Of a stretch of 64,000 bases of DNA, positions 28,886 through 34,916 are shown piece after piece. The notes beneath the pieces are model-generated. The model had not been told where the DNA came from and did not search any database. It was given only the letters and a program-made list of their open reading frames with translations. Source of the stretch: an uncultured Verrucomicrobiae bacterium (GTDB taxonomy: Bacteria > Verrucomicrobiota > Verrucomicrobiia > Chthoniobacterales > UBA10450); NCBI GenBank assembly GCA_963834385.1, contig CAWIBO010000003.1, forward strand, positions 224,001 through 288,000, given 5' to 3'. The position numbers and the translations under genes are program-made. Numbering within the stretch: position 1 is the stretch's first letter; each line of letters starts with the position of its first letter.

Positions 28886-30592
28886 TCAATCGGCCGGGAC
28901 GGTTGTTTCGTCGCGGTTTTTCTCACCTTCCACGGGCGCGGGCGAACGGTTGGCCTCCATGACCTCGACGCCGAGGTCGCCAATCTTGCTGAGGGACAGA
29001 CCCTGCAGGGCCGGCGTGTTCTCGGCCATCTCGCGGAAGACGTCCTCGACCAAAAGGAGACCGTTTCCGCCGGTGCGCGCCTGCAGGATGTCGCGCAGGA
29101 TTTCCCAGTCGTCGCGCGCCTCGCCGGGAGCGTTGATGGCGCGGTTGAGACGCTGGAGACGTCCCTTGCCGTTGATCATGGAGCCGCGCTTTTCCGCGAA
29201 GCCGCAGGAGGGGAGCAAAACGGTGGCGTGCGGGGTAGCCTCGTTGGCCAGGAGACCCATGACAATGAAGGCGGGCAGGGTCGAAAGCACCTCCGTGGTC
29301 AGGCCAAACTCGGTCGGGTCCTCGCCGAAAACCAGCAGGGCGCGAACACTGCCGTTTTTCACTCCCTCGACAATGGCGGGCAGGTGCGCGCCCGGTTCGC
29401 TCGTGATGCCGAGAAGTTTGGCGCCGTTGGTGTTCGGGTTGCGATCCTCGCTCAGGAGGATGTCGTCGCCCGGGCCGCGTCGGGGAACAATGTCGAGGTG
29501 TTGCACGCCGAGGGCGCGGGCCAGTTTCGCGGTCAGCCAGAGTTCCTCATTGGTCATGCGACCGGAGGCGACGAGCGCGATCTCCCAGCCCTGGAAATGC
29601 TGGAGCTGCAGAGCCGCGTGCTTGATCGCGGTGTCCCACGAAACCGGGGCCAGCTTTGTCCCGTCAAAGATCTGCGGCTGGAGCAGGCGTTTCTCCGATT
29701 GCAGATAATCGAAATTGAGGCGGCCGTAATCGCACATCCAGGTGGAATTGACGGCGTCGTTCTCGCGCGGCGTCTGGCGGTAGATCACATCCTGCCGGGT
29801 GCCGATGACGGTGTTGCAGCCGGTGGCGCAACTGGTGCAGAAGCTCTTCGTTTCCTTGAGGAACCAGACCCGCATCTTGAACCGGAAATCGGTGGAGGTG
29901 AGCGCGCCCACCGGGCAGATGTCGACGGTGTTGAGCGAGTAATTGTTTTCCAGCTGCCGGCCGGGGTGGGCCGTGAGCACGGTGTGGCTGCCGCGATCGA
30001 TGAAGCCGAGGACGTCGTCCTTGGCCACTTCCTGGCAGAAACGGATGCAGCGCGAACAGAGAATGCAGCGTTCATCATCGAGGGTGACGCGGGGACCGAG
30101 CTCGACGTTCTTCGGTTTCTTTACCTTGTTCTCGAGGAACCGGGAGGCGGCGTTGCCGTACTCGACGCTGAACTCCTGCAGCCGGCATTCCCCCGCCTGG
30201 TCGCAGATCGGGCAGTCGAGCGGATGATTGATCAGGAGAAATTCCATCACGCCCCGGCGGCATTCCTCGACCAGGGGCGAGGTGGTCCGCACCCCCATCC
30301 CCTCGGAAACATCCTGGGCGCAGGAAATCTGCGGGCGCGGCATCCAGTTGATCAGCGGCTTCCCGTCCTCGCCCAGCTCCGGCTGGCGATCGGGCCCGAG
30401 CTTGGGCATGCCCATCTCGACGAGGCACATCCGGCAGTTCCCGGGCGAACTCAATTTCTTGTGGTAGCAATAGCGCGGGACGTAATGCCCCGCCTGCTCG
30501 CACGCCTCGATCAACCGCGTCCCCTTGGGGAACTGGTGCCAGACACCGTCCACCTGGACGTTGACCATTTGTGCTGGAGTGGATTCGGGCAT
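28886..30592 (-). CDS. nuoG: NADH-quinone oxidoreductase subunit G (short form, 568 aa)
   Basis: PRYCYH...GNCRMCLVE, NHPLDCPICDQAGECRLQ, CILCSRCIRFC...CPVGAL, CTSCATGC...WMCD. Confidence 0.94.
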   Translation of the reverse strand: MPESTPAQMVNVQVDGVWHQFPKGTRLIEACEQAGHYVPRYCYHKKLSSPGNCRMCLVEMGMPKLGPDRQPELGEDGKPLINWMPRPQISCAQDVSEGMGVRTTSPLVEECRRGVMEFLLINHPLDCPICDQAGECRLQEFSVEYGNAASRFLENKVKKPKNVELGPRVTLDDERCILCSRCIRFCQEVAKDDVLGFIDRGSHTVLTAHPGRQLENNYSLNTVDICPVGALTSTDFRFKMRVWFLKETKSFCTSCATGCNTVIGTRQDVIYRQTPRENDAVNSTWMCDYGRLNFDYLQSEKRLLQPQIFDGTKLAPVSWDTAIKHAALQLQHFQGWEIALVASGRMTNEELWLTAKLARALGVQHLDIVPRRGPGDDILLSEDRNPNTNGAKLLGITSEPGAHLPAIVEGVKNGSVRALLVFGEDPTEFGLTTEVLSTLPAFIVMGLLANEATPHATVLLPSCGFAEKRGSMINGKGRLQRLNRAINAPGEARDDWEILRDILQARTGGNGLLLVEDVFREMAENTPALQGLSLSKIGDLGVEVMEANRSPAPVEGEKNRDETTVPAD

Positions 30593-30594
30593 GG

Positions 30595-31064
30595 GATGAA
30601 TCAGGAAACCAGGAAAGCAGGAAACTCAGGATGGAAAATCGTGCACGGCGTCTTGGCTGGAACTCGCGGCCGACACGTTTAATCGTCAGCGGGCGCGTGG
30701 CGAAATTCAGAAGAAGACCGTCGTTCAGGTCGACAGCCTTCAGATAAGTGCGCAGGATGGCGTAATGTATCGTTTTCCAGGGCGATAATGGCCTTGAACT
30801 CGACGAGCGACATCGGCCTCAACCAGAAAGTCCAGGCGATGCTCACCGATTTGATGATCCTTGTAGAAAAGCGGGATCGGGTGTTGCCGCTATACTGAAT
30901 GCCGCTGAGCGGCGAAGTTCGACCGCCAAGTGCCTGCTCGTAAATAGACTCGAGGAAACCCGGACCCAGCTCCGGATGGACACGTGATGGCCGCGCCGAT
31001 GATCGGCCTCGTGACGTCCCGATCCCTCAGTTTTTTTCCTGTGTTCCTGCTTTCCTGATTCATC
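30595..31064. mobile_element. Putative IR-bounded element between nuoF and nuoG carrying a GxxExxY gene
   Basis: Terminal inverted repeats GATGAATCAGGAAACCAGGAAAGCAGGAAA (30595-30624) and, on the minus strand, GATGAATCAGGAAAGCAGGAACACAGGAAA (31064-31035): 27/30 identical, built from an 8-nt CAGGAAAN unit. Mobility is inferred, not shown. Confidence 0.65.
30630..31063 (-). pseudogene. GxxExxY protein (PD-(D/E)xK nuclease-like), multiply frameshifted as read; 3' end uncertain
   Basis: Stitched translation: MNQESRNTGKKLRDRDVTRPIIGAAIT/VHPELGPGFLESIYEQA/LAVE../GIQY/RQHPIPLFYKDHQIGEHRLDFLVEADV/LVEFKAIIALEN/IHYAILRTYLKAVDLNDGLLLNFATRPLTIKRV. The GFLESIY motif is at 30940-30960. Confidence 0.88.
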
Positions 31065-31068
31065 TTCC

Positions 31069-33042
<1,974 letters not shown>

Positions 33043-33046
33043 GAGA

Positions 33047-33355
33047 CTAGTTTGAAAGCGAGCCCGTCATGGACTCCACCTTGTCGTCCCAGAAAACGAT
33101 GGTGACCGTGTCGCCGCCCTGCTTGTAGATGTAGGTGACCTTCTTGTTCACATCCATCGGTTCAGTCTCGACGGTGGTGGGCAGGCCGAGGATGGACTCG
33201 ACCTGTTTCCGGGCCATGCCGGTGGCGACCTCCTCGACATTGGCCTGGGTGAGGTTTTTGTCGGGATTACAGGCCGCCAGGAGGAGAGCAGCGCCGGCCG
33301 CAAGAAGCGTCCGCGCGGCCCGGGCGGGAATGAAGGCGCGGGCCGGCCGGCTCAC
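33047..33355 (-). CDS. Small lipoprotein, SmpA/OmlA(BamE)/DUF3862-like
   Basis: Lipobox LLAAC; GMARKQVESILGLP motif; GTGA overlap with the upstream paralog. Confidence 0.75.
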   Translation of the reverse strand: MSRPARAFIPARAARTLLAAGAALLLAACNPDKNLTQANVEEVATGMARKQVESILGLPTTVETEPMDVNKKVTYIYKQGGDTVTIVFWDDKVESMTGSLSN

Positions 33356-33654
33356 GGCTCGCGTCCGAGGTTGGTGTCCTTGCTGTCGACCTCGTCGTTC
33401 TTGAAGGTGATGACAGCAAACTTGTCCTCGTTCTCGTAGCGGTAGGTCGTGCGCTTGTAGATGACCTTGTCCTCCTCCTTGGCCGAGGTCGGTTCGCCCA
33501 GGATCGATTTGACCTGCGTCTTCGACATCCCGAGCGAGATCTGATCGTAGTTGGCCGAGGTCAGTTTCGCGCCGGGAGCCCGTTCGCAGCCGGTAATGAC
33601 AAGGGAAAGGCCAAGAATCGCCAGCACGGCCGCCAGTTGGAAGGAGTGTTTCAT
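33352..33654 (-). CDS. Small lipoprotein, SmpA/OmlA(BamE)/DUF3862-like (paralog of the adjacent gene)
   Basis: Lipobox VITGC; LTSANYDQISLGMSKTQVKSILGEP motif. Confidence 0.78.
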   Translation of the reverse strand: MKHSFQLAAVLAILGLSLVITGCERAPGAKLTSANYDQISLGMSKTQVKSILGEPTSAKEEDKVIYKRTTYRYENEDKFAVITFKNDEVDSKDTNLGREP

Positions 33655-33659
33655 AATGG

Positions 33660-34916
33660 TTACCTGTCGCATTCGCCCATGACAAAATCCAGACTGCCGA
33701 GAATGGCAACGACATCGCTCATCATCGAGCCGGGCAGCAGCTCGGGCAGGATGCTGAGATTGACGAACGAAGGCGCGCGGATCTTGAGCCGGTGAGGCAC
33801 GCCGCCCCCCTTGCTGTTAATGTAAAAGCCCAGCTCGCCCTTCGGATTTTCCGCCCCGAAGTAGACCTCGCCCGGCGGCGCCTTCAGCCCCTCGGTCACA
33901 ACGATGAAGTGGTGGATCAGCTCCTCCATTTTCGTCATGACGTTGGCCTTTGGCGGCGGCATGTTTTTCCAGTCGGTCACGTTGATCGGGCCCGCCGGCA
34001 GGGTCTCGATGACCTGGCGAAGAATGCGCACGCTCTGCCGCATCTCCTCGATCCGGACCAGATAACGGTCGTAACAATCGCCGGCTGAACCGACCACCAC
34101 CTCGAAATCGTATTTCTCGTAATCGAGATAGGGATGTTTCCGCCGCAGATCGTGTTCAACGCCGCTTCCGCGCAGGTTCGGCCCCGAGAGGGCGTAGGCG
34201 ATGGCGCGATCCTTCGGGATGACGCCGATGTCCTTTGTGCGGTCGACGAAAATCCGGTTCCGGGTGAGAAGCTTGTCGATCTCGTCGAGCTGCGGGATGA
34301 AGCCGTCGAGAAACGCCTCGAGCTGCGGGATGAACGTGGACGGCAGGTCGCGGATCTGCCCGCCGACCCGGGTGTAGGAGGTGGTGAACCGCGCCCCGGT
34401 CAGGAGTTCAAAGAGGTTATACAGCTTTTCGCGCTCGGTGAAGGTGTAGAGGAAAACGGTCATGGCGCCGAGATCGAGGGCCATGGCGCCGAGGCCGAGG
34501 AGATGGGCGGAAATACGCGCGGTCTCGCAGCAGAGGACGCGGATGGCCTTGCCCCGGGGCGGCAGCTCCCAGCCCATCAATTTTTCGACGGCGAGGGCGT
34601 AGGCGACGTTGTTCGCGAGCGGAGCCAGGTAATCGAGCCGGTCGGTGTAAGGCACGAACTGGTTGTATTGCATGTTTTCCGCGATTTTCTCGTCGCCGCG
34701 ATGCAGGTAACCGACATCGGGCGTGGCCCGGGTGACCATCTCCCCGTCGAGCTCGAGGACGAGACGGAGGACGCCGTGAGTGGCGGGGTGGGAGGGCCCC
34801 ATGTTCAGGATCATTTTCTCGCCGATATCGCCCGCCGCCGGGTCCATCTCCGCCTGGGCCTGCGCGACGCGCGTGGCCGGGTCCGGTGATTCGAGTTCGC
34901 GCGTGGTAAAGCCCAT
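33660..34916 (-). CDS. nuoD: NADH-quinone oxidoreductase subunit D
   Basis: LNMGPSHPATHGVLRL, GYLHRGDEK, DRLDY, ENPKGELG, RLKIRAPSF, DFVMGECDR. Confidence 0.97.
   Translation of the reverse strand: MGFTTRELESPDPATRVAQAQAEMDPAAGDIGEKMILNMGPSHPATHGVLRLVLELDGEMVTRATPDVGYLHRGDEKIAENMQYNQFVPYTDRLDYLAPLANNVAYALAVEKLMGWELPPRGKAIRVLCCETARISAHLLGLGAMALDLGAMTVFLYTFTEREKLYNLFELLTGARFTTSYTRVGGQIRDLPSTFIPQLEAFLDGFIPQLDEIDKLLTRNRIFVDRTKDIGVIPKDRAIAYALSGPNLRGSGVEHDLRRKHPYLDYEKYDFEVVVGSAGDCYDRYLVRIEEMRQSVRILRQVIETLPAGPINVTDWKNMPPPKANVMTKMEELIHHFIVVTEGLKAPPGEVYFGAENPKGELGFYINSKGGGVPHRLKIRAPSFVNLSILPELLPGSMMSDVVAILGSLDFVMGECDR

Follow-up and report, generated by a model that had tools for sequence, protein, structure and literature searches.

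The window, the whole stretch of DNA analysed here (64 kb), carries within its nuo operon a cassette of 470 bp (30595-31064) in which inverted arms enclose a GxxExxY gene between nuoF and nuoG (Table 1). A sequence-only reading had described the unit and its 30-bp arms, and both the coordinates and the complementarity of the arms (27/30, with 410 nt separating them) were confirmed. That reading had also composed each arm of three octamers. Each arm does hold three 8-bp units, but one of the six departs from the consensus first read at its seventh base, and the repeat unit is therefore better described as six fixed and two free bases. The upstream arm contains the start codon of the gene, at 31063, and codes for its first residues, the peptide MNQESRNTG that had been read from the letters; residues 1-9 of an intact relative are predicted to be disordered (AlphaFold pLDDT below 50). 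The downstream arm stops 2 nt ahead of the nuoG start codon. The G+C content is 57% in the interior of the cassette and 64% in each neighbouring gene. On the upstream side, nuoE and nuoF form a single frame composed of 2Fe-2S thioredoxin-like and Complex1_51K domains, a fusion also present in the relative L006, and a BamE-domain lipoprotein-like frame is found within the operon between nuoD and nuoEF (33047-33715, minus strand).

Table 1. Coordinates of the cassette components and of the flanking host genes in the window.
Feature	Position	Strand	Remarks
Upstream arm	31035..31064	-	30 bp, three 8-bp units (31057-31034)
Downstream arm	30595..30624	+	inverted, three 8-bp units (30602-30625)
GxxExxY gene (TIGR04256 / PF13366)	30626..31063	-	broken as assembled; aligned to intact relatives
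Single-base indels of the GxxExxY gene	near 30985, 30930, 30917, 30910, 30891, 30808, 30771		seven
Fused nuoE-nuoF (657 aa), upstream host gene	31069..33042	-	stop ends 4 nt before arm
nuoG (568 aa), downstream host gene	28886..30592	-	

The gene belongs to the GxxExxY family. Two pieces of the window copy match the TIGR04256 profile at 27.8 and 22.7 bits, both below the 35-bit cut-off, and the intact orthologue L006 exceeds the curated cut-offs of both family profiles, scoring 132 bits on TIGR04256 (cut-off 35) and 126 bits on PF13366 (cut-off 22), which is the sole Pfam match of the intact protein. When the window gene is read through with an X at each break, 101 of 132 residues are identical to the closest intact copy and there are no in-frame stops. 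The GxxExxY motif and PD-(D/E)xK-type residues that had been recognised from the letters are borne out by comparison: among 81 proteins G35, E38, D77 and K89 are invariant and Y41 and E87 are kept in at least 90%, and all six are readable in the window. Alignment to intact relatives makes insertions of six of the seven single-base indels, and would place the stop of the gene at 30628-30626, implying one further indel in the tail.

The breaks are probably a local consensus failure of long-read assembly. Frameshifts split 10 of 87 control genes in the source assembly, about one per 7.5 kb, and from this background 0.05 indels would be expected in 400 bases, compared with the seven that are seen in the window gene. 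All five broken copies of the cassette are in assemblies with no more than 20 contigs, as are 15 of the 54 intact copies (p 0.003). Ordinary decay of the window copy is less likely because the read-through is open at the identity given above, the indels are in large excess and broken copies are confined to assemblies of at most 20 contigs. In a search of read runs by sequence words, no RNA run was among the matches listed; two DNA runs contained fractions of 0.07 and 0.05 of the words, and the contigs of these runs leave most of the gene uncovered. Other broken genes in the source assembly need caution, given the 10 split genes among the 87 controls.

A structural model of an intact relative (pLDDT 90) has its closest fold in the Cas4 protein SSO0001 (Z 8.7, rmsd 3.5, 102 aligned) and also matches lambda exonuclease (E 7.6e-4), and the active-site D, E and K are conserved. 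By this prediction the protein is a Cas4-like PD-(D/E)xK fold, and a fold alone shows no function.

To place the cassette among its relatives, 151 family genomes were searched, 133 of which gave a match, together with one earlier search. From these, 132 junctions were collected and 126 were parsed, leaving out the mis-parsed L194, L197, L212, L226 and L257 and the incomplete L288. All junction states except full cassettes were assigned by eye. An intact octamer cassette stands between nuoF and nuoG in 54 of the 126 genomes (two of them, G002 and G007, are unpublished, and no conclusion depends solely on these two), a broken one in five, and an internally deleted one with its arms kept in six. 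The junction is empty in 28 genomes. Other inserts fill the remaining 33: six four-helix-bundle cassettes, 19 gene-less hairpins of other repeat families (16 of the four-helix-bundle arm family and three others) and eight other genes. Relatives do not, then, all carry the same gene here without inverted repeats, the junction being empty or otherwise filled in 61/126. The states are scattered across the host tree, and records of the junction cassette come from Chthoniobacterales, Candidatus Udaeobacter and Verrucomicrobia. The gene starts within 4 nt either side of the end of the nuoF stop in 46 of the 54 intact cassettes.

The other occupants of the junction deserve description in their own right. 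Four-helix-bundle genes (TIGR02436 / PF05635, tested on L026) are found in L026, L217, L218, L223, L225 and L018; their cassettes possess inverted arms of their own, built of 6-bp units, and one of the six cassettes is deleted. A clan AA aspartic-protease-like gene occupies the junction in seven genomes, L200 (1493-1888), L195, L201, L205, L215, L216 and L220, none of which has visible arms beside the insert; the match, tested on L200 only, is 45.5 bits and falls below the cut-off of 57.35. The nuo region seems to be a hot spot for GxxExxY cassettes, since several relatives carry further GxxExxY genes with other arm words about 20 kb or less from the junction (G050:C3 376423-385014, G010:C27, G022:C1, G008:C1, G017:C2 and G021:C1).

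The history of the cassette is not that of its hosts. When codons within the arms are excluded, the genes cluster in their tree by subtype of arm rather than by host. In a tree test that left out two of the 54 cassettes, the cassette gene has 2 of 49 splits in common with the host tree, versus 11 of 49 for a piece of nuoG of equal length, and forcing the host tree costs 1219 in log-likelihood for the cassette gene versus 141 for the nuoG piece; the AU test alone is indecisive, as the host tree fails it even with the short nuoG control, and the size of the effect decides. In the pair G090 and G106 the flanks are 4.7% apart, compared with 36% for the cassette proteins and 71% for their fourfold sites. 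Other close host pairs differ in the state of the junction, empty in one and full in the other, or filled with one family in one and another family in the other, and occupied junctions have been replaced by other cassette subtypes. All 1431 pairs have pN below pS, which indicates purifying selection on the gene. A single old insertion followed by repeated loss is ruled out by the tree conflict and by the close hosts with distant cassettes. These comparisons indicate that the cassette is exchanged between related bacteria at nuoF-nuoG, in place of simple inheritance.

The exchanged tract appears to be short. Windows in nuoF and in the conserved stretch of nuoG go with the host (a comparison of the nuoF windows without gap alignment is the weaker test of this), and the first 24 nt of nuoG track the cassette in 30 versus 14 pairs, a weak signal that ties at 19 to 20 when another anchor is used. 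No target-site duplication of fixed length was found: the longest in the window is 2 nt, and among 51 cassettes duplications of 2-3 nt occur in 41 and of 4-5 nt in seven, compared with 4-5 nt in two of 51 controls. BLASTN gives one full copy in the source genome (assembly 89.6% complete) and no further full copies at unrelated sites. The return to one junction, the lack of a duplication of fixed length and a window copy that is broken as assembled make the unit unlike an ordinary transposon.

A free-standing homing endonuclease would produce some of this pattern. In that case an empty allele would be cut by the protein within nuoF or nuoG, and double-strand-break repair would copy the gene in, as for phage T4 mobE; the arms would be by-products. 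The return to one junction between conserved genes, the tree conflict and the purifying selection all fit, and other family members also lie between housekeeping genes. The passages of PMC2790892 on T4 mobE describe a similar arrangement, a promoterless nuclease gene between conserved co-transcribed genes that spreads at one site; compared with what they describe, the cassette has a nuclease of another family, inverted arms, dispersed hairpins (see below) and no long co-conversion of the flanks, and it is found in bacterial chromosomes at many unrelated junctions. We consider homing very unlikely, the least probable of the explanations weighed here. No co-conversion is seen past the first nuoG codons, beyond which nuoG, like nuoF, goes with the host; one clade occupies unrelated junctions; occupied sites are replaced by other subtypes; and both the arms and the dispersed hairpins are left unexplained.

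The arms behave as a matched pair. In a comparison of 51 cassettes (4 of 55 were left out), arms from the same cassette agree with each other at 19.5 of 21 positions, versus 16.7 +/- 0.25 when arms are shuffled between cassettes. Such matching could also be maintained for the sake of RNA. In 23S rRNA, intervening sequences form a stem that RNase III removes, and the arms might pair in a comparable way in the nuo mRNA; excision or bypass of the loop would then maintain the coupling of nuoF to nuoG, and the protein would act on that RNA. Folding predictions for the transcript pair the arms as a stem (z -3.87; none of 100 shuffles was as stable), the arms reach from the nuoF stop to the nuoG start, and the other cassette at the junction encodes the 23S rRNA intervening-sequence protein family, which itself occupies nuoF-nuoG in 6 of 126 genomes. 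The ORF-bearing intervening sequences of 23S rRNA (PF05635 / TIGR02436) are likewise a small gene in an inverted-repeat stem within a conserved transcript; in contrast, the GxxExxY cassette lies between protein genes, encodes a nuclease fold and has no sign of selection on pairing of the RNA strand. Any inverted repeat folds well, however, and there is no wobble excess on the sense strand (22 G-U versus 31 A-C mismatches in 51 cassettes, p 0.27), nor would an RNA stem itself explain the exchange of DNA. No Rfam family overlaps the unit, and two weak matches outside it are below their gathering scores. An RNA-level element is, on balance, improbable.

The same arms are found with the same kind of protein well beyond the nuo operon. 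GTDB genomes were scanned for the family motif preceded by the upstream arm, which gave at least 119 loci, at least 69 of them beside nuoF and at least 50 elsewhere. The inverted downstream arm, which the scan pattern does not require, is present at 42 of 46 nuo loci and 27 of 31 other loci among the matches listed with enough DNA (3 of 80 loci were left out of this count), and controls gave 0-3. Among the matches listed, the other octamer-armed loci come from Opitutaceae, Planctomycetota, Lentisphaerae, Spirochaetaceae and others, and their junctions include nusB-ftsY (2), dprA-topA (3), aconitase-nadA and cysS-tmk; 35 neighbours of such loci were scanned, 11 of which had no match at threshold. 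The proposal that the gene plus its arms is a mobile unit is thus supported from three sides: 61 of 126 nuo junctions are empty or otherwise filled, the gene tree conflicts with the host tree, and the octamer-armed clade recurs at other operon junctions in other phyla.

Arm sequence co-varies with protein clade, a relationship that the sequence-only reading had suggested looking for. A single clade (support 0.87) unites 55 of the 56 octamer-armed proteins and contains none of the 67 profile-picked family proteins with other arms; 21 of the 88 family loci were left out of the tree for weak arms or incomplete genes, as were four pattern loci and short ones. Arm clusters change 36 times on the protein tree versus at least 74 times in shuffles, the classes being taken from 6-mer clustering that split the octamer family in three and lumped some others. 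Inverted arms (at least 18/22 matches) also flank 66 of 88 other GxxExxY loci, with other words and periods of mostly 8-11, versus 10 of 88 in direct orientation. Arms arising by chance, or added by unrelated repeats, are ruled out by this difference and by the co-variation of arms within a cassette. The source genome itself encodes two other GxxExxY genes (L001 1357-1808 and L002 1405-1863), each with inverted arms of a different word; close to the family motif of the L002 gene the frame appears to shift.

The octamer clade has residues of its own, several of them in the helix that follows the D-E-x-K motif. A glutamine kept in 64 of the 67 other family proteins, which we take to belong to the RecB-family Q-x-x-x-Y motif, is I or V in the octamer clade, and its loss could mean a changed or lost activity. 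Helix 96-109 of L006 carries an F, an R and an S peculiar to the clade near the replaced glutamine and is a candidate specificity helix.

Arms without a gene are dispersed through the source genome. An arm matrix finds 184 sites in 54 clusters, versus 6 and 8 sites in two shuffles. The sites are intergenic (3/184 lie deep in open frames, versus 95/200 random positions) and face one another (26 convergent versus 4 divergent neighbours), and they are often nested with other short-period repeats. Many of the clusters are hairpins of 59-130 bp, and gene sequence is present in a single cluster of the 54, that of the window. In places, octamer arms nested with several other short-period repeat families form intergenic mosaics in which blocks of 150-290 bp are repeated (G000:C2:249650-250650, C2:910050-910600 and C3:379500-380080).

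The form of the dispersed copies corresponds to that of the resident cassette. One variant of the arm is carried by the cassettes of G149, G144 and G048, which belong to three genera. It occurs at 16, 9 and 3 sites in these genomes, respectively, two, one and two of them in the cassette itself; among the 148 other genomes it has one or two sites in 11 and none in 137. Ordinary arm sites number one in G149 and 12 in G144, there beside the nine variant sites. At two other junctions common to several genera, the hairpin is of the subtype of the genome's own cassette in G149, G118, G131 and G048, and in G096, where the nuo junction is empty, it is of the ordinary form. Judged by these subtypes, gene-less hairpins follow the resident arm variant. 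The median number of dispersed sites is 7 in 59 occupied genomes versus 2 in 61 others, and five or more are present in 39/59 versus 8/61 (up to 18 sites; occupancy was scored at the nuo junction, and kin are not independent in this and the other counts). One dispersed insertion in G131, with no counterpart in three relatives, is a cassette with a deletion in which the 5' end of the gene survives, and for this reason the cassette appears also to reach new sites and to decay there; only two of five dispersed G131 copies are absent from all comparable close relatives. The suggestion that the arms are a recognition site fits both the match of word to clade and the tracking of the variant, but linkage alone would account for part of the agreement between arm and clade.

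It is conceivable that the cassette is a passenger. It would then be moved by an enzyme acting in trans, such as a resident Y1/HUH transposase, or by host machinery that takes up DNA and recombines it within the conserved flanks, and the cassette's protein would be kept for some other benefit and bind the arms, if at all, only to regulate itself. The presence of four-helix-bundle cassettes, other hairpins and a protease-like gene at the same junction is in keeping with this, as are the conserved flanks and the short exchanged tract. The source genome has nine PF05635 matches and three Y1_Tnp matches, two above cut-off, all three away from the unit. What a passenger would not explain is a clade-specific arm word shared across phyla, or dispersed copies that match the variant of the resident cassette; in addition, protease-like inserts without visible arms indicate that arms are not needed just for residence. 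We regard a passenger as rather unlikely.

The reading toward which we lean, with modest confidence, gives the protein a part in its own movement. The Cas4-like GxxExxY protein of the gene-plus-arms cassette exchanged at nuoF-nuoG is likely to bind DNA at its own arms with their 8-bp period, and the exchange likely begins when it cuts there or close by. Recognition of the periodic arms would be by one unit per subunit, and cutting would free or prime the cassette. Re-entry would occur by short-tract recombination that replaces the stretch from the nuoF stop to the first nuoG codons, whatever the occupant. Rarer insertions at new junctions would lose the gene by internal deletion and become hairpins of 60-130 bp, some of which may be copied further by the enzyme. 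Translation of the operon would be maintained by the start codon that the upstream arm supplies beside the nuoF stop and by the position of the downstream arm, whose end is at the start of nuoG. The main doubt about this mechanism is that outside machinery may move both kinds of cassette, because four-helix-bundle cassettes, which have no known nuclease activity, behave alike and turn over at nuoF-nuoG with their own arms.

Among known systems the cassette works most like a REPtron or TIRtron. As set out in the parts of PMC3733652 and bioRxiv 10.1101/2022.05.22.493013 that concern them, these consist of a tyrosine transposase gene (RAYT or TIRYT) with REPs or terminal inverted repeats on either side, and the latter source describes the inheritance of REPIN-RAYT systems as mostly vertical. 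Measured against those parts, the likeness lies in one small enzyme gene between inverted repeats, many gene-less intergenic copies and a repeat family specific to the enzyme. The differences are that the enzyme has a PD-(D/E)xK Cas4-like fold in place of an HUH Y1 transposase, that the arms consist of repeated 8-bp units and include the start codon, and that the cassette moves between hosts while keeping to one junction, with 2/49 splits as in the host tree. On the account given in those parts, the cassette stands outside this group by both its enzyme and its inheritance.

The PDDEXK_3 / GxxExxY family (PF13366, TIGR04256) is listed with unknown function, and the passage of PMC3424549 devoted to PDDEXK_3 reports multiple transfers and mixed clades. 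This is the family of the window gene, and arms, repeats and a mobile unit are absent from that passage. A description of a GxxExxY gene-plus-arms unit was not found in the literature searched, which did not extend to subscription journals and bioRxiv supplements. The cassette is likely a type of mobile DNA that has yet to be reported, with an enzyme that probably recognises its own repeats. Its newness as a class depends on the role proposed for the enzyme; if the cassette is a passenger, it is a new variant of passenger cassette.

We also put forward, more tentatively than the mechanism at the nuo junction, a wider possibility: GxxExxY genes may be the mobilising enzymes of widespread minimal mobile elements. 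The 140-residue Cas4-like nuclease of each clade would read its own periodic word of 8-11 bp, swap its cassette into junctions of housekeeping operons across species and make the matching intergenic hairpins. This would resemble the REP/RAYT relationship, built on an unrelated enzyme, and would amount to a natural code between protein residues and DNA words. The nuoF-nuoG junction is a ready test system: the 54 intact alleles fall into several arm subtypes, close relatives supply empty alleles, and one helix holds residues specific to the clade. If the proposal is true, an enzyme of 140 residues with clade-specific DNA words would be useful as a tool. It would also define a class of mobile element that uses a Cas4-like nuclease and not a DDE, HUH or recombinase enzyme, provide a source for the short-period intergenic hairpins that fill many genomes, and give a role to a large orphan family, members of which are present in 44 of the 61 relatives searched.
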